The notes beneath the pieces are model-generated. The model was given only the letters and a program-made list of their open reading frames with translations, was not told the origin of the DNA and ran no database searches. The position numbers and the translations under genes were made by a program. A stretch of 32,637 nucleotides of DNA from Candidatus Dormiibacterota bacterium (GTDB taxonomy: Bacteria; Chloroflexota; Dormibacteria; Dormibacterales; Dormibacteraceae). This document shows, piece after piece, positions 934 through 28,562 of the stretch. Position 1 is the first letter of the stretch. Each line of letters opens with the position of its first letter. Location: assembly GCA_036505515.1 (NCBI GenBank), contig DASXTG010000142.1, positions 1-32,637 of the forward strand, given 5' to 3'.

Positions 934-1779
934 ATGGCCGTCGACAAGAAGGACAAGAAGCGGAAGAAGAAAGACGGACAGTGGACGCCAAGGAAAGGCG
1001 TTCTGTCGAAGAAGGACTACGAGAAGGAGCTGCGGCGCTTGCAGGTCGAGCTGTTGCGCCTCGAGGAATGGATCCGGCACAGAGGCCTGCGCGTGGTCGT
1101 CCTCTTCGAGGGTCGCGACACCGCCGGTAAGGGTGGCGTCATCAAGCGGATGACTGCGCTGCTGAACCCGCGCTACGTCCGTGTGGTCGCCCTGCCCGCC
1201 CCGACAGAACGGGAGCGGACGCAGTGGTACTTTCAGCGCTACGTGGCGCACCTACCTTCGGCCGGCGAGATGGTGCTGTTCGACCGCAGCTGGTACAACC
1301 GCTCCCTTGTCGAGCACGTCATGGGTTTCTGCACCGACGAGGAATACGACGAGTTCATGCGCACGTGTCCACAGTTCGAGCGCATGCTCGTGCGCTCGGG
1401 GATCATCCTGATCAAGTACTGGCTCTCGGTCAGCGATGATGAGCAGGAGCGGCGCTTCCTGGCCCGCATCAACGATCCGAGCAAGCGCTGGAAGCTGAGC
1501 CCTATGGACCTGCAGGCGCGTGCGAGGTGGGTCGACTACTCAGAGGCCAAGGACCAGATGTTTGCGTTCTGCGACATCAAGGAGGCTCCCTGGCATGTGG
1601 TAGAGACCGACAACAAGCGCGCCGCCCATCTCAACCTGGTCAGCCATTTCCTCTCGCTGATCAAATACAAAGAAGTGCCGCATGACGACATCAAGCTTCC
1701 GCCGCGGCAGAAACGCAATTACAGCCGTCCCCCAAAGAGCTCGCAGCAGATGGTTCCGATCAAGTACGAGGTGAGCTGA
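934..1779 (+). CDS. ppk2: polyphosphate kinase 2 (PPK2 family polyphosphate:nucleotide phosphotransferase)
   Basis: 281 aa. Lys-rich N-terminus. Walker A-like VVVLFEGRDTAGKGG followed by the conserved PPK2 block LFDRSWYNR; lid region WKLSPMD. Confidence 0.85.
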   Translation: MAVDKKDKKRKKKDGQWTPRKGVLSKKDYEKELRRLQVELLRLEEWIRHRGLRVVVLFEGRDTAGKGGVIKRMTALLNPRYVRVVALPAPTERERTQWYFQRYVAHLPSAGEMVLFDRSWYNRSLVEHVMGFCTDEEYDEFMRTCPQFERMLVRSGIILIKYWLSVSDDEQERRFLARINDPSKRWKLSPMDLQARARWVDYSEAKDQMFAFCDIKEAPWHVVETDNKRAAHLNLVSHFLSLIKYKEVPHDDIKLPPRQKRNYSRPPKSSQQMVPIKYEVS

Positions 1780-1782
1780 GCG

Positions 1783-2169
1783 ATGAGAGTGCGGGACCTC
1801 CCGCCGGGACGTCTGATCGCGGTCGATCCAAAGACCCGGCTCGCCGAGGTGGCACGGCGCATGCGCATCGACGATTCCGATTCGGTCGCGGTCATGTCTC
1901 AAGACCGCCTGGTGGGGATCATCACCGAGCGCGACCTGGTGCGTGCCATCGCTGACGGCGTCAACCCCGCTCAGACCGCGGCCGACGTGATCATGTCGGC
2001 AGACCCCGCGACCGTCAGCGCCGACGAGGACGTCGATGTCGTGGCCGTGAAGATGATGCGGTTGGGCATCAGGCACCTGCCCGTCGTGGACGCCAACGGC
2101 TCACCGGTCGGGCTGGTCTCGGCGCGCAACCTGGTAGCGATGCTGGACAGGGGCAAGAAGCAGCTCTAG
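1783..2169 (+). CDS. CBS domain pair protein
   Basis: 128 aa. Two CBS-like repeats (VAVMSQDRLVGIITERDLVRA ... HLPVVDANGSPVGLVSARNLV). Start is 3 nt after the ppk2 stop, so the two genes look operonic and coupled. Confidence 0.75.
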   Translation: MRVRDLPPGRLIAVDPKTRLAEVARRMRIDDSDSVAVMSQDRLVGIITERDLVRAIADGVNPAQTAADVIMSADPATVSADEDVDVVAVKMMRLGIRHLPVVDANGSPVGLVSARNLVAMLDRGKKQL

Positions 2170-5574: not shown

Positions 5575-6726
5575 TTAGAAGAGGCCAGTGAGCCAGCGGC
5601 GCAGCGGCTTCGGTCCAGGGGGCTCGTGGTAGGGCGGCAGCAGCCTCGCCACGGCCTCTGCGCCAAGGCGGTGAATCTCGTCCACCGTCTTCCCGGCGGT
5701 CGGGATCGGCTCGCCGATATACACGCCGATCCTCTTTCCCAGCCACACGTCTTTGGGACCGGAAAGGCCCACGGGGACGACTGGGATCCCGCCCCCGGCC
5801 GCAAAGTGGGCGAAGCCCTTCTTGAAGGGAAGGAGCTCGCCCTCCCGCGGCCCGAAATCGCCTTCCGGGAACAGCGCGAGCGCACCGCCAAGCGAAAAAC
5901 AGCGACCGACGTGCCGAAAGAGAACCTGTGGGTCGCGCACCGCCCGCTCAACGGGGATGATCCCCCCAGTGGCCCGTACGAGCGCCCACTCCAGCTTTCT
6001 CCTCATCATTCCGGTGGGGTCGGCCAGCAGGTGAATCCGCGGCTCGATCGGGAAGACCATCAGCACGGTCATCGCGTCCAGCCAGCCGAGGTGGTTGGCG
6101 ATGACGATGTAGGTGCCCTTACGCGGAATGTGCTCGCGACCGTGGACGTCGAAACGGAAAGCCAGGCGCAGGGCGGGGATGGTGACAAGTCTCACCAGGC
6201 GATAGGTCAGCGTTGCCCGGCGACCCACGGGCAGCAGATCCGCCGGCGGGACGGCACCGCTCGTCCGCCCTGCGGCGGCCGCCTCGGCGTTGGGGCGCCA
6301 GCGCAGCGAGTTCCAGTCATCGCTCAACGACACCTGCGTGACGGCGACCAGACCGGCGGCGTGCAGCACGCCCCAGCCGTGGTCGCGACTGAGGTCGGCG
6401 ACCGGGCCCTGCTTCGGGTTCGGGTAAGCCATCCACAGGACGCCGCCCGGTTTCAATGCGCCAAGCGCGGCGCCGGCATCCCTCTCGAGCTGCGCGCGGT
6501 CGCGGGCGAAGAGCTGGACCACGTCGTTCGGACCGTTGGCTTGTTCATCGGCGACCGCGCCTTCCGGAAGGGGACGCAGATCCTCCAGGTATCCGGGCGG
6601 CGCGTTGAGGATCAGAACCCGCTGGCCGGCCTGGATGAGGAGCTTGCGGCTGAGCGCCGATTCCGCCACGCGGGCATTATCGGCGGTGTTCATTTTCAGG
6701 TCCGCCACATCTAACCTGGCTGCCAT
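5575..6726 (-). CDS. DUF3052-like domain fused to 1-acyl-sn-glycerol-3-phosphate acyltransferase (LPLAT/PlsC family)
   Basis: C-terminal ~230 aa carry the LPLAT acyltransferase motifs HxxxxD (ANHLGWLD), the FPEG block (ALFPEGDFGP) and VPVG. N-terminal ~130 aa (RVLILNAPPGY...DVVQLFARDRAQLER...LKPGGVLWMAYPNPK...DWNSLRWRP) match the DUF3052 pattern. No stop codon separates the two domains. The start is set at ATG 6726 (alternative 6693). The extra 146 R-rich aa of the 7164 ORF are rejected. Confidence 0.65.
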   Translation of the reverse strand: MAARLDVADLKMNTADNARVAESALSRKLLIQAGQRVLILNAPPGYLEDLRPLPEGAVADEQANGPNDVVQLFARDRAQLERDAGAALGALKPGGVLWMAYPNPKQGPVADLSRDHGWGVLHAAGLVAVTQVSLSDDWNSLRWRPNAEAAAAGRTSGAVPPADLLPVGRRATLTYRLVRLVTIPALRLAFRFDVHGREHIPRKGTYIVIANHLGWLDAMTVLMVFPIEPRIHLLADPTGMMRRKLEWALVRATGGIIPVERAVRDPQVLFRHVGRCFSLGGALALFPEGDFGPREGELLPFKKGFAHFAAGGGIPVVPVGLSGPKDVWLGKRIGVYIGEPIPTAGKTVDEIHRLGAEAVARLLPPYHEPPGPKPLRRWLTGLF

Positions 6727-23529: not shown

Positions 23530-23703
23530 CTAGCTGGCTCGCCTCTTCGTTGTGCGTGATCGAGCCTTCTCGAGCGGGACCATCGCCACCGGCCTGAGCA
23601 CGATCGCGCTGCCTTGCTGATGGACCTCGAAAAAGGATTCCCCTTCGAGTCCCAGGGCGCGCCTGGTTTCGGCAGGCAGCGTCACCCGCCCGTTTGGGCT
23701 CAT
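23530..23703 (-). CDS. AbrB/MazE/SpoVT-family DNA-binding (swapped-hairpin) protein
   Basis: 57 aa from ATG 23703 (MSPNGRVTLPAETRRALGLEGESFFEVHQQGSAIVLRPV). This is the looped-hinge helix / swapped-hairpin antitoxin-type fold. The longer GTG ORF from 23817 would run through the promoter of the divergent unit. No cognate toxin gene is present. Confidence 0.5.
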   Translation of the reverse strand: MSPNGRVTLPAETRRALGLEGESFFEVHQQGSAIVLRPVAMVPLEKARSRTTKRRAS

Positions 23704-23769
23704 GGAAACTATGCTTCGCACGCAGCGGGCAGTATACCAGGCCTTATGCCACACGGTCAAACGGCCACC

Positions 23770-23822
23770 GTGGCAAATTGCCACTTGACCACTTGACCAA
23801 TGATCGACTAAGCTCACCAGGT
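23770..23822 (+). promoter_or_regulatory. operator palindrome GTGGCAA-A-TTGCCAC plus sigma70-like promoter (-35 TTGACC, -10 TAAGCT) for the leaderless small ORF
   Basis: Perfect 7-1-7 inverted repeat at 23770-23784, directly abutting a tandem ACTTGACC ACTTGACC. -35 TTGACC (23785-90), 18-nt spacer, -10 TAAGCT (23809-14). ATG at 23824, so the predicted TSS lies 0-3 nt upstream of the start codon. Confidence 0.4.
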
Positions 23823-23823
23823 C

Positions 23824-23991
23824 ATGGGCAAATCAGTGCTCACCAAGAACTTTGCGATTGCCGCCGAGGTGGCTGTGGTCGGCTTGTGCCTGGGGTCCGA
23901 ACCCCGTATGGGCCAAGCAGCCGATCACGCCTATCAGAAGGCGCAGAGCCAGACCCCGTGGACCGCTGTGAGGTTCAAGCCTCAGAGCTGA
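23824..23991 (+). CDS. small hypothetical protein (55 aa, one hydrophobic helix), probably leaderless
   Basis: MGKSVLTKNFAIAAEVAVVGLCLGSEPRMGQAADHAYQKAQSQTPWTAVRFKPQS. Flanked by its own promoter and a textbook intrinsic terminator. Not in the supplied ORF track because it is under 60 aa. Confidence 0.35.
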   Translation: MGKSVLTKNFAIAAEVAVVGLCLGSEPRMGQAADHAYQKAQSQTPWTAVRFKPQS

Positions 23992-24008
23992 CAAGAGCAA
24001 CCACACAA

Positions 24009-24041
24009 GGGGCCTGGCGAGCGCCAGGCCCTTTTTCTTTT
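24009..24041 (+). terminator. Rho-independent terminator
   Basis: GGGGCCTGGCG-ag-CGCCAGGCCC stem (about 9-10 bp, GC-rich, small loop) immediately followed by TTTTTCTTTTG. Lies 18 nt after the small ORF stop and upstream of the tRNA cluster. Confidence 0.7.
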
Positions 24042-24109
24042 GTCCGCGAATCGAGAGCACTTTGAAAACCGAATAGGCATGGCAATTTCAAAAGCTGGTT
24101 GCTGCCGGC

Positions 24110-24182
24110 GTGGTCGTAGCTCAACGGCAGAGCGCTCGGTTGTGGCCCGAGAGTTGTCGGTTCGACTCCGACCGATCACTCC
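24110..24182 (+). tRNA. tRNA-His (anticodon GTG)
   Basis: Hand-folded cloverleaf: acceptor GTGGTCG/CGATCAC (one G-U), U8-A9, D-stem GCTC/GAGC, anticodon stem CTCGG/CCGAG, loop TTGTGGC (U33, anticodon GTG), T-arm GTCGG-TTCGACT-CCGAC. Position -1 is C rather than the usual encoded G-1. CCA not fully encoded. Confidence 0.75.
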
Positions 24183-24210
24183 GGCAGCTACATCACGCGG
24201 GGGAACCAGC

Positions 24211-24288
24211 GGGTCGGGAGCTCGATCTGGGATGAGCGACTGCTTCGCACGCAGAAGGCTGGGAGTTCGAATCTCCCCCGATCCACCA
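24211..24288 (+). tRNA. tRNA-Ala (anticodon CGC)
   Basis: Acceptor GGGTCGG/CCGATCC containing the Ala identity pair G3:U70. D-stem GCTC/GAGC. Anticodon arm ACTGC-TTCGCAC-GCAGA (anticodon CGC). T-arm GGGAG-TTCGAAT-CTCCC. Discriminator A and encoded CCA. Position 8 is G, which is unusual. Confidence 0.8.
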
Positions 24289-24291
24289 AAC

Positions 24292-24365
24292 AGGGCCGTC
24301 ATCTAACGGAAGGACGCCTCGCCCTCAGCGAGAGGACGCCGGTTCGAGTCCGGCCGGCCCTACCA
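24292..24365 (+). tRNA. tRNA-Glu (anticodon CTC) with atypical C33
   Basis: Acceptor AGGGCCG/CGGCCCT (7 perfect bp). Glu-type short D-arm (TC ATC TAACGGA AGGAC). Anticodon arm CCTCG-CCCTCAG-CGAGA gives anticodon CTC with A37, but C at position 33. T-arm GCCGG-TTCGAGT-CCGGC. Discriminator A and encoded CCA. Confidence 0.6.
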
Positions 24366-24439
24366 ACGATCGGTAATTGAGCTCAGAGTGCACCGCGGCC
24401 CATCAACTCATCGGAATTTCAACAAAAGGAGGTCAAGAC

Positions 24440-25657
24440 GTGGAGCTGATCGACGGCATCGCGGTTTTCGGCGACCCGATCGAGACCAGTGCGCTGGATC
24501 AGATGCGACGCACCAAGGCTCATCCGGCCGTCCGCGCAGCGGCCCTGATGGCCGACCACCACAAGGGTTACGCAGTTCCAATCGGAGGCGTCGTCGCATA
24601 CGACGGAGCCATCTCTCCCGCGGGCGTCGGCTACGACATCGCCTGCGGCAACAAGGCCGTTCTCACGGACATGTCGGGCGCGGACGCACGCGCCGGCATC
24701 ACGAAGATCATGGACGACATCGCGGCCAAGATCAGCTTCGGCGTCGGCCGCAAGAACGTCGAGCGCGTCGACCACGAGCTGTTCGATGACCCGGCATGGT
24801 CGGTCATAAAGCACCTGCAGCTGCGCGACAAGGCCGCGGCCCAGTTGGGCACAGTCGGCTCGGGCAACCACTACGTCGACGTCTTCACCGACGAGCAGGA
24901 TCGAGTTTGGGTCGGCGTCCACTTCGGCAGCCGAGGCTTCGGCCACGGTATCGCCACGTGGGCGCTGAAGGCGGGAGGCGCCGGCGACGGCATGGATGTC
25001 GCACCGCTGGTCCTTTCGGCGGATTCGGATCTCGGCGCCGGGTACATCGCGGCCATGAACCTGGCGGGTCGCTACGCATACGCAGGCCGTGACTGGGTGT
25101 GTGATCGGGTGGTGAAGATCCTCGGAGCGCGCAAGCTCGACGAGGTCCACAACCACCACAACTTCGCATGGCAGGAGCAGCACAGCGGCCAGGACCTCTG
25201 GGTGGTTCGAAAGGGAGCCACTCCGGCGTTCCCGGGCCAGCGCGGATTCGTCGGTGGAAGCATGGGCGATGACGCGGTGATCCTCGAGGGCGTCGATCCC
25301 TCGGGCAACCCGATGGCGGCGGCGGTCAACCAGGAGGCTGCTCTCTTCTCGACAGTGCATGGAGCCGGCCGTGTGATGAGTCGCACTGCGGCTCGCGGCC
25401 GGCGCAGGAAGGTCGGCGGTAGGTGGGAGGACGACCCGCAACACCCGGGTCGAATCTCGCGCGACGACATGCATCGTTGGATCGCAAAGCGAGGCGTCGT
25501 GCTGCGTGGAGCGGACACCGACGAGGCGCCGCAGGCCTACAAGCGACTGCCGGATGTGCTCCGGCACCACCGCGGAACGGTCCGCATCCTGCACACTCTC
25601 TCGCCCATCGGCGTCGCGATGGCGGGGGCCGGTGAATTCGACCCCTACAAGGACTGA
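24440..25657 (+). CDS. rtcB: RtcB-family RNA 3'-phosphate/2',3'-cyclic phosphate - 5'-OH ligase
   Basis: Metal-ligand and active-site blocks LMADHHKGYAVPIGGV, GYDIACGN, GSGNHYVDVF, HNFAW and FSTVHGAGRVMSR (the His that is guanylylated). Start is set at GTG 24440, 7 nt after AAAGGAGGT. ~405 aa. Lies 75 nt after the tRNA cluster. Confidence 0.85.
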   Translation: MELIDGIAVFGDPIETSALDQMRRTKAHPAVRAAALMADHHKGYAVPIGGVVAYDGAISPAGVGYDIACGNKAVLTDMSGADARAGITKIMDDIAAKISFGVGRKNVERVDHELFDDPAWSVIKHLQLRDKAAAQLGTVGSGNHYVDVFTDEQDRVWVGVHFGSRGFGHGIATWALKAGGAGDGMDVAPLVLSADSDLGAGYIAAMNLAGRYAYAGRDWVCDRVVKILGARKLDEVHNHHNFAWQEQHSGQDLWVVRKGATPAFPGQRGFVGGSMGDDAVILEGVDPSGNPMAAAVNQEAALFSTVHGAGRVMSRTAARGRRRKVGGRWEDDPQHPGRISRDDMHRWIAKRGVVLRGADTDEAPQAYKRLPDVLRHHRGTVRILHTLSPIGVAMAGAGEFDPYKD

Positions 25658-25665
25658 CGTTTTAA

Positions 25666-25695
25666 GGGAGGCTGGGCGCGTGGACCCGGCCTCCC
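25666..25695. terminator. hairpin between convergent rtcB and membrane-protein gene
   Basis: GGGAGGC (25666-72) pairs with GCCTCCC (25689-95), with a 16-nt loop. No U-tract. Confidence 0.25.
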
Positions 25696-25753
25696 CGTCG
25701 GCGGGAGTTTGCCGAGGATGTGGCGGTATAGCCCCACCGGTCCCGATCACGAT

Positions 25754-26137
25754 CTAGAACGCGATCAGCCACACAAGCACGAGCGCACAAGCCACGGAGA
25801 CCATCACGCCGAGGACGGGCAGCACGTACCGATATATCAGCATTCCTCTCTCGGCCGGATCTTTGCTGAGGCGCATGGCTCCGACCGCGAAAGCAATGCC
25901 AAGCGCCGGTCCGGCCAGGTCCAACCAGTCCAGGGGTTGGACATTCAATGGGTTGTCGACTGGAGGGCAACCAAGGGGGGCGAATTCACACGAAGTTGCT
26001 GCCGGCCAGGCGTGCGTGGACGTGAACCACGCGATCGCCAGTAATGGAAGTGCAACACCCCCAAGGGCGAGGACGAGGCGGACCGGCAAGCCCAGGATGG
26101 ACCTTGGCTCGAGGGGCTCGTCCGGATCTGAGCTCAT
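25754..26137 (-). CDS. small hypothetical membrane protein (127 aa, 3 predicted TMs)
   Basis: Start ATG 26137 overlaps the HNH gene stop in an ATGA arrangement, indicating translational coupling. Hydrophobic helices LPVRLVLALGGVALPLLAIAWF, LAGPALGIAFAVGAM and VLPVLGVMVSVACALVLVWLIAF. Confidence 0.5.
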   Translation of the reverse strand: MSSDPDEPLEPRSILGLPVRLVLALGGVALPLLAIAWFTSTHAWPAATSCEFAPLGCPPVDNPLNVQPLDWLDLAGPALGIAFAVGAMRLSKDPAERGMLIYRYVLPVLGVMVSVACALVLVWLIAF

Positions 26138-26790
26138 ACCGATTCTTGGGCTGCTCGGGCTTTGATCAGGGATAGCGGTTCGTAATCGGGCTTCCATTGT
26201 CTGACGAAGCCGGGAAATCGAGCCTTGATCTCGTCCCACGTCGCCCCTGGCATCAGCTGCTCAAGCGCCGCACGCATCTGGCAGTTGCGGCAGATCCCCA
26301 ATCTCTTGTTCGCCCACGCCCCGCAGCCGCTGATACACGGTTGAAGGTGGTGGTGGCAGGCAAAACAGAGGACCTGCAGGTTCGCGTCGCTGTCGTCGCC
26401 GCCCTGAAGCACCGCCAGCCGGTGATGGACTTGCAGCACTCGGTCCGCGGCCGACGCCCCGCAGACCTCGCAGGCGCCGCCGCGGGCCGCGATCAACGCT
26501 CGCCGGCGCGAGGCCGTCAAAGGCTCGACGCCGGCCCGCCGGTTGTTGGCGGTGAGGACGCGATCGCGGGTGCTGCGGATCCCGACAAATTGCGCAAATT
26601 CGCCGTCCCGGCCGCTCGAGCATCTGCCGCAGAGAACGAGCAGATTGCCTGCCGCGCAGCTCGAATTGTCATCAAGGCGAAATACGTAGAGGCCCCAGCG
26701 CCACTCAAGCCCGCACTCCTCGCACGCCCCCGAGCACCTGCGCTCAAGCGCAACACGAACGCTCGGAGCGAGCCGCAGTCCCCCAAACAT
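26134..26790 (-). CDS. HNH endonuclease with tandem (degenerate + intact) HNH motifs and C-terminal Cys-rich module
   Basis: Second module: CEVCG ... LQVHHRLAVLQGGDDSDANLQVLCFACHHHL, i.e. the full CxxC...HH...N...CxxCH HNH signature. First module: CEECG ... DDNSS...NLLVLCGRC lacks the His pair. A third Cys cluster CISGCG...CRNC follows. Confidence 0.7.
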   Translation of the reverse strand: MFGGLRLAPSVRVALERRCSGACEECGLEWRWGLYVFRLDDNSSCAAGNLLVLCGRCSSGRDGEFAQFVGIRSTRDRVLTANNRRAGVEPLTASRRRALIAARGGACEVCGASAADRVLQVHHRLAVLQGGDDSDANLQVLCFACHHHLQPCISGCGAWANKRLGICRNCQMRAALEQLMPGATWDEIKARFPGFVRQWKPDYEPLSLIKARAAQESV

Positions 26791-26865
26791 GCGTTTGGCT
26801 CGAGACCATGGTAGCGCCGATTGGCGGGTGATGCCGCTTACGATTCAGTGCCGAAAAGCAAAGAG

Positions 26866-27795
26866 ATGCCGAACGCAATCTGGACCGGCTCGCTGTCGCT
26901 CGGCCTGGTGGTGGTGCCGGTGCGCCTCTACCCGGCCATTCACAAGAAGACCGTGCGCTTCCACGAGCTCGATCAGGTCGGCCGCCGGGTGCGGCATGTG
27001 CGCGTCTCCGAGCCTGAGGTTGAGTTCGAACCTGCGAGTCGTGGTCCTGAGCTGCTCTTGCCGGAATCGGGGCAGGCTTCCCAACGTGAATCGTCTGGTC
27101 GACCTACGCCAATCTATGAGGCGCCCACCTCAGAAGTCTCATTTGAGGAAATTCGCAAGGGCTACGAGGTCGCGCCCGGAGAGTACGTGAGCATGGCGCG
27201 CGATGAAGTAGCCGCGTTGGCGCCCGAGCGCAGCCGAGTCATCGATGTCCAGCAGTTTGTGGACGTGTCCGCGGTGGATCCGATCTACTTCGAGTCGCGC
27301 TACTACGTGGTGCCGGATCGGGAGTGGTCTTCACCATTCCGAGTGCTCCGTCAGGCGATGGCTGCCGCGAACCGGATGGCGCTTGCGTGGTTCACGCTGC
27401 GTTCACGGCGCTACCTGGGCGCGGTTCGTCCCCTTGGCGATGTGATGTTGCTGACCACCATGGTCCATGCCGATGAGGTCGTGGCCGCCGATTTCTGGAT
27501 TCCTGATGCGGATGCGGCTCCGACCGACAAGGAACTGAACATGGCGCGACTGCTCATCGACACCCTGTCAGGCCCGTTCGAGCCCGAGCGCTTCCCGGAC
27601 GAGCATCGGCAGCGTCTGCTGCACGCGATCGAGGCGAAAACCAAGACGATGCCTGCAGAGCCGGCATCTCCATCACCGACACGCGTGCTCGACCTGATGG
27701 CGGCGCTGGAAGCCAGCGTCACGGCTGCCAAGGCCGCGCGCGCCGAGCAAGATCGGCGATCGAAAACTCAACGCCGGCGATCAAGCGGCGCATAA
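26866..27795 (+). CDS. ku: Ku protein (bacterial NHEJ DNA-end-binding protein)
   Basis: N-terminus MPNAIWTGSLSLGLVVVPVRLYPA. Core blocks SRVIDVQQFVDVSAVDPIYFESRYYVVPD and ANRMALAWFTLRSRRYLGAVRP. Basic C-terminal tail. Clear similarity to mycobacterial Ku. The region corresponding to the Mtb Ku Cys-containing loop (CEAC) is replaced here by a ~65-aa Cys-less Glu/Pro/Ser-rich insertion. Confidence 0.9.
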   Translation: MPNAIWTGSLSLGLVVVPVRLYPAIHKKTVRFHELDQVGRRVRHVRVSEPEVEFEPASRGPELLLPESGQASQRESSGRPTPIYEAPTSEVSFEEIRKGYEVAPGEYVSMARDEVAALAPERSRVIDVQQFVDVSAVDPIYFESRYYVVPDREWSSPFRVLRQAMAAANRMALAWFTLRSRRYLGAVRPLGDVMLLTTMVHADEVVAADFWIPDADAAPTDKELNMARLLIDTLSGPFEPERFPDEHRQRLLHAIEAKTKTMPAEPASPSPTRVLDLMAALEASVTAAKAARAEQDRRSKTQRRRSSGA

Positions 27796-27807
27796 CCAGA
27801 CGCGGCG

Positions 27808-28050
27808 ATGTTCGAGATTACCGAGAGCGAATTAGCGTTGATACTGGAGGCTCTCGACGACGCCGCGTTCTATCGCGACACTCGCTCTCGGGTGCTCAAG
27901 AGCGCGGTGAACAAGAGAAACCGCCGCTCGTCATCGTCTGAAAACCAGTTGACAAACGCAACGAATCAAGAGGCCGCTGGCGCCGACATACATCGAGGCA
28001 AGGCGCAAGCCTATGAGGCGCTGGGCATCAAGCTGAGGCGCGGGCGATAG
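27808..28050 (+). CDS. hypothetical 80-aa protein coupled to ku
   Basis: Starts 12 nt after the ku stop with no own SD. N-terminal helix (ITESELALILEALDDAAFYRD) then a basic/Ser-rich tail. Sits in a ~275-bp segment with visibly lower GC (about 55%). Confidence 0.45.
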   Translation: MFEITESELALILEALDDAAFYRDTRSRVLKSAVNKRNRRSSSSENQLTNATNQEAAGADIHRGKAQAYEALGIKLRRGR

Positions 28051-28070
28051 TACGCACAGAGGAATAGGCG

Positions 28071-28562
28071 ATGAGTCCAATTGTTCTCTTTGGAATTCAA
28101 TTCACGCTGAGCCTGGCCGCCTACGCGCTCATAGCGTGGTGGTATGTCGTGCCCCGCCTTTCGAGACTTCCGCGCGAGGTGGCGCTGGTGCCGCTCCTGT
28201 GGGTCCACGCCTTTCGCATAGTCGGCGGCACGATCCTGGCTCCCGGCGCCGTCGATGCCGCGGTACCCGCCGAATTCCGCATGATGATCGGATATGGCGA
28301 CATCGTCACCGCACTAATCGCCCTGGTTGCCTTGGTCGCCCTTCGCCTTCGTCTGTCTGCTGCCATCCCACTCGTCTGGCTTTTCCTCACGGTCGGGTCG
28401 CTCGACACCGTGAACGCGATCATTCAGTCGATGCGGTTCAGCGTCTTCACGCACGGGCTTGGCGTGAACTGGGTGATTGTCACGATCTACGTGCCGGCGC
28501 TTGTGGTGAGCAGCGTTCTGATCTTCATCCAGCTTCGTAGGCCAAGCAACTCCAAGATCTAG
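28071..28562 (+). CDS. hypothetical integral membrane protein (4-5 TMs)
   Basis: 163 aa. ATG preceded by GAGGAA with good spacing. Several hydrophobic helices. No recognisable family. Confidence 0.6.
   Translation: MSPIVLFGIQFTLSLAAYALIAWWYVVPRLSRLPREVALVPLLWVHAFRIVGGTILAPGAVDAAVPAEFRMMIGYGDIVTALIALVALVALRLRLSAAIPLVWLFLTVGSLDTVNAIIQSMRFSVFTHGLGVNWVIVTIYVPALVVSSVLIFIQLRRPSNSKI

Follow-up and report, generated by a model that had tools for sequence, protein, structure and literature searches.

The 32,637-bp contig DASXTG010000142.1, from a metagenome-assembled genome (MAG) of Candidatus Dormibacterota, was analysed over its whole length and is referred to here as the window; all coordinates are those of the contig. 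The block under study, at 23.5–28.6 kb, encodes in order an AbrB-type DNA-binding protein, tRNA-His, tRNA-Ala, a tRNA-like element, the RNA ligase RtcB, a 127-amino acid (aa) membrane protein (TM127), an HNH nuclease, the end-binding protein Ku, an 80-aa protein (ORF80), and a 163-aa membrane protein (TM163). RtcB is on the same strand as the tRNA genes and convergent with TM127-HNH; outside the block, the contig codes for ordinary proteins of metabolism, transport, and regulation. An initial annotation, made from the sequence alone, took the whole block for a possible single system. Comparison with related loci makes it likely, at a probability of roughly 0.75, that the 5 kb are instead a lineage-specific juxtaposition of separately inherited units: a tRNA-RtcB unit (unit A, 23.5–25.7 kb), and a head-to-head pair of HNH and Ku genes (unit B, 26.1–27.8 kb).

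The clearest view of this comes from a natural deletion variant. In a relative with 96% nucleotide identity (L135), a histidine kinase gene runs directly into TM127-HNH and the divergent Ku-ORF80-TM163, all intact. Missing is the equivalent of window positions 23586–25559, which hold AbrB, the terminator, all three tRNAs, and most of rtcB; an inverted 106-nt scrap of rtcB remains. Alignment of L135 (reverse complement of 1084–1187) with window positions 23585, 25394–25499, and 25560 gives a 1.8-kb deletion plus a 106-nt inversion, with 2–3 nt of microhomology shared at the junctions. The joins can be taken as a real deletion and inversion because a 127-mer assembler cannot make them. The genes retained in L135 are under purifying selection (ratios of nonsynonymous to synonymous substitution, dN/dS, of 0.19–0.30 between the window and L135; HNH 0.25, Ku 0.28, TM127 0.30), except for ORF80, whose changes are too few for such a judgement. 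The L135 scar is of the end-joining type, and lies ~1.3 kb from the ku gene.

The same separation is found among more distant relatives. The RtcB sample consists of 80 metagenomic and 80 viral loci (160 in all) with RtcB relatives at 53–85% identity, and the Ku sample of 20 Dormibacterota Ku loci with flanks of up to 10 kb; Ku or HNH loci together number ~35, the closest Ku loci all being from Dormibacterota or “Chloroflexi CF_” soil MAGs. RtcB is absent from the 20 Ku loci, as are TM127 and ORF80, and Ku and HNH are absent from the 160 RtcB loci. The only one of the block's proteins to adjoin RtcB elsewhere is AbrB, in the four closest RtcB loci (L048, L049, L050, and L081), where an AbrB-terminator-leader-RtcB module recurs between quite different flanking genes. 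The kinase preceding AbrB in the window has a 68%-identical orthologue in another relative (L036), two genes from HNH, so that the RtcB cassette looks like an insertion into an older kinase–HNH neighbourhood. RtcB belongs with the neighbouring tRNA genes, not with Ku and HNH.

Table 1. Features of the 23.5–28.6 kb block, with window coordinates.
Feature	Position	Strand	Remarks
AbrB/SpoVT (MazE-like) DNA-binding protein	23530..23721	-	63 aa from GTG 23721; open frame up to 23817
Intrinsic terminator	24007..24034	+	12-bp stem, 8 GC pairs, then TTCTTTTG
Conserved non-coding block GCACTTTGAAAACCGAATAGGCATGGCAAT	24057..24086	+	Directly after terminator
tRNA-His (GTG)	24110..24182	+	ARAGORN; Rfam 63.6 bits
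tRNA-Ala (CGC)	24211..24288	+	ARAGORN; Rfam 49.8 bits; G3:U70 pair, enlarged D-loop
Aberrant tRNA-like gene, Glu(CUC)-like	24292..24365	+	Rfam 42.1 bits; not called by ARAGORN
RtcB 3'-phosphate/5'-OH RNA ligase, 405 aa	24440..25657	+	GTG start, 7 nt after GGAGG 24428-24432
TM127 membrane protein, 127 aa	25754..26137	-	ATG overlaps HNH stop as ATGA (TCAT at 26134-26137)
HNH nuclease, 218 aa	26134..26790	-	PF01844 34.7 bits vs 21.4
Divergent promoter region, 75 bp	26791..26865	.	Ku-side box CTTACGATTC; HNH-side box, then CAAACGC and ATG
Ku (bacterial end-binding protein of non-homologous end-joining), 309 aa	26866..27795	+	PF02735 5e-35; TIGR02772 234.1 bits vs 150
ORF80, 80 aa	27808..28050	+	Small-protein family of Dormibacterota
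TM163 membrane protein, 163 aa	28071..28562	+	No Pfam family

The genes named in the initial annotation are largely where it put them, with a few corrections. Pfam and TIGR matches agree with its calls of RtcB, HNH, and Ku, each an ordinary representative of a known family, and its “textbook” terminator is present as a stem-loop with a T-run. RtcB begins at GTG 24440 rather than at 24377, a start backed by relatives beginning MELIDG, and Ku at ATG 26866; the position at which the block was said to begin is the 3' end of the AbrB/SpoVT-type gene, which had been overlooked. In its tRNA-His/Ala/Glu cluster, His and Ala hold up, while the “Glu” is not a normal tRNA, being recognized by Rfam and rejected by ARAGORN.

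RtcB matches PF01139 at 210.5 bits, against a gathering score of 27 (7e-62), and its motifs GYDIACG, GSGNH, HFGSRGFGH, HNHHN, and HGAGR align with those of Pyrococcus horikoshii RtcB (4dwr). Judging by these residues, which include all those for metal binding and the histidine that accepts guanosine monophosphate, the enzyme is catalytically intact. In this it resembles RtcB of the E. coli rtcBA-rtcR operon, with the same metal-binding residues and nucleophilic histidine, and the expected chemistry is likewise the sealing of RNA 3'-phosphate or 2',3'-cyclic phosphate to 5'-OH ends. It differs in lacking the RtcA cyclase, the sigma-54 activator RtcR, and archease: as the initial annotation had it, no such domains are found in any window gene. 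In the 80 metagenomic loci no neighbour cluster (archease, RtcA, PrfH, or other) is found in more than five, so the stand-alone state is normal for this RtcB subfamily. At one RtcB locus, probably not from Dormibacterota (L092), a homologue of the LigD 3'-phosphoesterase domain (1439–1786; 40% identity over 126 aa) lies ~2.2 kb upstream of RtcB.

What does recur beside RtcB is tRNA genes. In the window, two or three tRNAs (depending on how the aberrant one is counted) end 75 nt before RtcB on the same strand. A tRNA is present within 500 nt upstream in 11 of the 65 metagenomic relatives with enough upstream sequence, and nine metagenomic RtcB genes, 54–62% identical to the window's, are inside arrays of 13–33 tRNA genes (L074, L078, L095, L101, L102, L103, L109, L116, and L125). 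RtcB genes of the array type are also found on IMG/VR contigs (L150, L151, L159, L174, L200, and L210); tRNAs are present at 30 of the 80 viral loci, with five or more in six. Typically a tRNA ends 1–60 nt before the array RtcB start, and the next is found 4–200 nt past the stop. The sources are soil and peat metagenomes, viral contigs, and one cultured acidobacterial jumbo phage. In Tunturiibacter phage Tunturi_5 (L227, 238768–249940), 16 tRNA genes form an array that contains both an unrelated HNH gene and an RtcB 58% identical to the window's, the latter immediately preceded by His-Ala-Ala(CGC)-Ala-Phe.

The tRNA-RtcB association itself is already described for cyanobacteria, in which the neighbourhood of long tRNA arrays includes rtcB and an HNH endonuclease, and array expression is co-regulated with rtcB under translational stress (PMC8421152). 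The window shares with these arrays, and with phage arrays such as that of Tunturi_5, an RtcB directly downstream of tRNAs on the same strand, a small DNA-binding regulator nearby (the AbrB-type protein being the window's candidate), and an accessory character, the module being lost in a close relative. It differs in that a long array (10 or more tRNA genes) is not present at the window RtcB: two good tRNAs, His and Ala, and one aberrant one make it a remnant. Its HNH protein also differs, being of another family with only the motif in common, and linked to Ku rather than to tRNAs. The window tRNAs have no specific nucleotide-level relatedness to array or phage tRNAs of the same anticodon.

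Unit A is probably an accessory cassette for tRNA supply and RNA repair. RtcB would rejoin RNAs, tRNAs above all, whose cleavage has produced 2',3'-cyclic or 3'-phosphate and 5'-OH termini, and would be co-transcribed with, or simply located beside, spare tRNA genes, although its RNA targets are inferred. The window tRNAs would be left over from the kind of tRNA array in which RtcB genes of this subfamily are often carried, phages included. The unit seems to be in different stages of decay in different strains. A repair or ribotoxin-repair module was among the possibilities raised initially; for the tRNA-RtcB part a role in repair of tRNA or ribotoxin damage is plausible, while for a five-gene island the idea does not hold.

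Upstream of RtcB, several features are shared with the four closest RtcB loci. All have 63-aa AbrB orthologues at an equal distance upstream of RtcB, making this protein a candidate local regulator of the tRNA-RtcB unit. It matches PF04014 at 24.8 bits (cut-off 24.7) and TIGR01439 below cut-off, and its gene has a promoter-like TTGACC-18-TATACT at 23760–23731. A type II toxin-antitoxin pair (MazE/AbrB) would have a co-oriented toxin gene next to it, but no toxin-family ORF adjoins it. The terminator stem and T-run are unchanged across the four loci, and the terminator closes a short forward-strand transcript begun between AbrB and the tRNAs. The non-coding block just after it is nearly invariant among the window and these loci, with divergent sequence beyond, and is a candidate promoter or operator of the tRNA-RtcB unit. 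Within the short transcription unit (23722–24034, forward strand) there is a 55-aa ORF divergent from AbrB (23824–23991) that belongs to no family; its reading frame is not kept in the relatives, where the DNA is partly conserved. The unit may yield a small RNA or a fast-evolving peptide; Rfam gave only sub-threshold, terminator-driven matches to this interval (BjrC68, 23 bits).

In the position of the tRNAs, the four loci have ~330 nt of other sequence ending in a decayed tRNA-Ala-like element. In L048 (~5890–5965) this element stands where the window has tRNA-Ala(CGC). Its 7-bp acceptor stem is perfect, with A3:U70 in place of G3:U70, and its anticodon loop, UUCGCAC, is that of the window tRNA; the T-loop (CUAAACC) and the D-loop are non-canonical. 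It folds as a cloverleaf at -36 kcal/mol (z = -2.4). It was seen by alignment and folding, neither ARAGORN nor Rfam calling any tRNA at the closest RtcB loci, and may represent either a tRNA in decay or a leader of the rtcB mRNA that resembles a tRNA. The aberrant element of the window has good acceptor and T arms, with an anticodon arm that can be drawn either with a CUC loop having C for U33 or with a 5-bp stem and a 5-nt loop; a pseudogene is one possibility, a tRNA whose anticodon loop has been altered another.

Unit B has a different history. The initial annotation had mentioned only in passing that HNH and Ku are divergent, as they are, 75 bp apart, and the neighbourhood comparison it called for brings out these two as a genuinely conserved pair. 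They are head-to-head in 12 of the 15 distinct HNH contexts; conversely, HNH is directly upstream of Ku and divergent from it in seven of the 16 Ku loci, and separated from it by one intervening gene in an eighth (L014). The outer neighbours meanwhile vary: some eight kinds on the Ku side (ORF80, alpha/beta hydrolase, AtuA, DUF2269 or amidase, cupin, adenosine deaminase, resistance-nodulation-division pump) and about seven on the HNH side (TM127, FGGY kinase, purine or cytosine permease, glutaredoxin-like, Rieske oxygenase neighbourhood). In a neighbour-joining Ku tree the linked state is found in the basal and most other clades, so the pair looks ancestral in this Dormibacterota clade and broken at least three times. 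No description of an HNH-Ku association, and nothing relevant on Dormibacterota DNA repair, was found in the literature searched.

The HNH family is 210–220 aa long with 56–95% identity among its members, and was not found on viral contigs or plasmids. From the N-terminus the protein consists of a degenerate Cys4 module resembling HNH, the active HNH, a Cys4 ribbon, and a helical tail with the conserved pattern W..IK.R.P...W...YEP; H122, H123, N137, H146, and four CxxC pairs are invariant in a 25-sequence alignment. The NCBI annotation gives a 120-aa protein (P0106), and in the alignment the full 218-aa frame, N-terminal module included, is conserved. A confident AlphaFold model (predicted local distance difference test score, pLDDT, 88) has similarity to PDB structures confined to the ~75-residue HNH core, with no full-length structural relative in the PDB (best Foldseek E-value 0.013, TM-score ~0.25). 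The beta-beta-alpha-metal core of ~70–80 residues is shared with Cap5 of the cyclic-oligonucleotide-based anti-phage signaling system (CBASS), the Geobacter HNH nicking endonuclease Gme, and EcoKMcrA. Unlike these, the window family has the tandem of degenerate and active HNH, the Cys4 ribbon, and its own C-terminal tail, and is without SAVED, CARF, or DNA-modification-reader domains.

In the spacer between the two genes, the promoters overlap, and both boxes are conserved across related loci, the HNH-side box being TACCAT in the window and TACGAT in the relatives. This TACGAT-type -10 box is ~20 nt upstream of the HNH start. The start codon is spanned by a CAAAC..GTTTG inverted repeat that is also present in L036, where the genes are unlinked. 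In the mRNA the start is in the middle of the conserved inverted repeat CCAAAC-GCAU-GUUUGG (window 26785–26800), with no Shine-Dalgarno sequence; the repeat is found as well in L001, L004, L013, L015, L019, L128, L135, and L136. This suggests a very short leader, with translation possibly controlled by structure.

Ku aligns with solved bacterial Ku structures such as 8v53 and has a basic C-terminal tail. Relative to those structures it has a low-complexity insert of ~35 aa (residues ~50–85, window 27013–27120), which varies more between the window and L135 than any other part of the protein. As the initial annotation had stated, the window contains no LigD-like ligase, by tblastn with four LigD or ligase queries and by Pfam scans of the other genes. 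The lack of an adjacent ligD is not the peculiarity it was then taken for, being the norm at all Dormibacterota Ku loci examined: none of ~25 has LigD next to Ku, while Acidobacteriaceae loci from the same search (L022–L034), serving as a positive control, have Ku followed at once by a ~900-aa LigD. Compared with the ku-ligD operons of Mycobacterium, Bacillus, and Pseudomonas, the window Ku is similar in scoring above the equivalog cut-off and in its basic tail. The recurrent neighbour of Dormibacterota Ku is different, however, being the divergent HNH nuclease, and the ligases found near Dormibacterota Ku are without polymerase or phosphoesterase modules. There are two of these, three-domain ATP-dependent ligases (DNA_ligase_A_N, A_M, A_C) of 580–593 aa, 2.1 kb from Ku in L005 (6104–7885, reverse strand) and 6.2 kb from Ku in L003 (17159–18898, reverse strand), at neither of which HNH is next to Ku. 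They are candidates for the end-joining ligase of the lineage.

TM127, ORF80, and TM163 are real lineage-restricted genes, which flank unit B in this lineage only. The ATGA overlap reported for HNH and TM127 is confirmed, and is present in L135 as well. TM127 has 11 cluster representatives in 1.84 billion proteins, and searches by tblastn at relaxed E-values and with diverse homologues as queries found it beside HNH in the window and L135 alone. ORF80, described earlier as coupled to Ku, does not overlap it: there is a 12-nt gap and no obvious ribosome-binding site. It has 33 homologues at 47–66% identity, in contexts without Ku (F420H2-dependent reductase, efp-nusB, kinase), one of them in the same MAG as an unlinked Ku on a different contig; tblastn at relaxed E-values, then with diverse homologues, found it beside Ku in the window and L135 only. 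Neither of the pairs suggested initially, HNH with its membrane protein and Ku with ORF80, is therefore conserved outside this lineage. TM163 has one 80%-identical homologue, 3 kb from Ku in L014.

Lower GC had been read as a sign of acquisition. The dips are there, 27796–28070 having a GC fraction of 0.589 where the contig averages 0.656, which puts it at the 4th percentile of 275-nt windows, but they are mild (3–7 points) and are equalled or exceeded at 12.8 kb and within the histidine kinase gene, and the window has no mobile-element genes. Pfam scans of the contig's gene products found no integrase, transposase, or DNA ligase domains. There is accordingly no sign of a mobile element or island at the tRNAs from integrase or transposase genes, although no search aimed at direct repeats of the tRNA ends was made. 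A PPK2-CBS pair (window 934–2169) that is 24 kb away from HNH and Ku here is within a few kb of one or both in L036, L136, and L012, in the order PALP-PPK2-CBS-Rieske followed at some distance by the HNH and Ku genes. In the window, an ancestral neighbourhood of PPK2-CBS with HNH and Ku has gained ~20 kb of metabolic genes.

If the block were nonetheless a single end-healing and sealing system, HNH would cut, Ku would hold the ends, RtcB would seal DNA in place of LigD, and the membrane protein would be a sensor or anchor, in either repair or abortive infection. Every gene of the block is intact and next to its neighbour, no ATP-dependent ligase is encoded on the contig, and E. coli RtcB is able to ligate DNA 3'-phosphate and 5'-OH ends in vitro. 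This is nevertheless very improbable, and already largely refuted by L135, which keeps HNH, Ku, TM127, and ORF80 without RtcB. In ~195 related loci RtcB is never with Ku or HNH; in the window its gene converges on TM127-HNH and is presumably transcribed together with the tRNAs; at other loci neither TM127 nor ORF80 is linked to HNH or Ku; and the ATP-dependent ligases near Ku in L003 and L005 mean that RtcB is not needed in the lineage as a DNA sealer. Co-occurrence of the homologues in other genomes had been set beforehand as the test of the one-system proposal, and the block as a whole does not co-occur. A defence or abortive-infection system in particular was considered and dropped, contrary to the initial suggestion: PADLOC finds no system, PADLOC-DB 2.0 giving only weak generic HNH matches (REase_II and ZorE, E 2e-5 or weaker) and none for RtcB, Ku, TM127, ORF80, or AbrB.

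For unit B, it may tentatively be proposed that HNH is a dedicated partner of Ku, the two forming a divergent module for binding and processing break ends that replaces the nuclease and polymerase functions of LigD, with the ligase unlinked. In the likely mechanism, Ku rings would thread onto the ends of a double-strand break, HNH would trim blocked or damaged termini, and an unlinked ATP-dependent DNA ligase, for which the three-domain type of the two relatives is a candidate, would seal the break. Stand-alone nucleases, the PolX exonucleases, have been proposed to supplement non-homologous end-joining (NHEJ) where LigD has no nuclease domain (PMC9226535). The concept is the same, a separate nuclease supplying end-processing for Ku-dependent joining; the fold here is HNH rather than PolX/PHP, and the basis is gene adjacency, as against co-occurrence and biochemistry for PolX. 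A number of observations count against a dedicated partnership, and some against the two-unit scheme more generally. HNH and Ku each keep their own -10-like box when the partner is absent, and no shared operator was found in the spacer, only these separate boxes. L007 lacks exactly 683 nt, HNH and its promoter, between FGGY-Ku flanks like those of the 88–89%-identical L004; one whole Ku clade is unlinked from HNH; and in three HNH contexts without Ku, homologues at 56–74% identity are beside ftsEX, prfB, or CoA-transferase. The Ku tree carries no support values, and the ligases are from L003 and L005, not from the window's contig. All comparison loci are MAG and metagenome contigs, scored per locus rather than per whole genome, the AbrB domain match is borderline (24.8 against 24.7 bits), and functions throughout the block are assigned from family membership and gene context only.

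Several of these same points would fit an adjacency that is inherited synteny without functional meaning, in which two unrelated housekeeping genes simply still lie together in most members of the clade: the pair has been split three or more times, cleanly in L007, HNH homologues have settled beside other genes, each gene has its own promoter-like box, and the pair is seen in one phylum only. Such an explanation is possible, and about as probable as a true partnership. Against it, the outer flanks have turned over ~7–8 times while the pair persists down to 59–63% protein identity, no other adjacency around HNH or Ku is retained to that extent, and a nuclease would be a functionally sensible partner for a DNA-end binder. 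HNH could conceivably also be a free-standing selfish endonuclease of the homing type targeting the region upstream of ku, which would explain both the adjacency and the clean presence/absence polymorphism. The 683-nt indel consists of exactly HNH and its promoter, and HNH homing endonucleases do accompany tRNA arrays, next to the array and RtcB in Tunturi_5 and in the vicinity of cyanobacterial arrays (PMC8421152). This is improbable for a long-lived family with invariant catalytic residues and a dN/dS of 0.25, whose divergence tracks that of Ku across loci; its members are missing from viral contigs and plasmids, hold other stable positions on the chromosome in the deeper branches, and have only the generic motif in common with the phage HNH.

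With two separately inherited units as the preferred reading, what looked invitingly like a five-gene “repair or defence island” proves to be a set of accidental neighbours, as a natural deletion variant shows directly. For unit A, the association of this RtcB subfamily with tRNA genes and arrays in soil bacteria and phages extends the cyanobacterial observation to other phyla, and adds a cultured acidobacterial jumbo phage to the carriers of tRNA-array RtcB; it lends support to the idea that RtcB and additional copies of tRNAs jointly counter toxins that cleave tRNA. For unit B, the uncultured Dormibacterota keep Ku beside an uncharacterised HNH nuclease rather than LigD. These bacteria are plentiful in dry soils poor in nutrients, where cells that are not dividing rely on end-joining. 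If functional in this process, the HNH protein would be a new end-processing factor for bacterial NHEJ, and its family is biochemically testable; a dedicated HNH-Ku module, if that is what the pair is, would be a previously undescribed bacterial NHEJ architecture.

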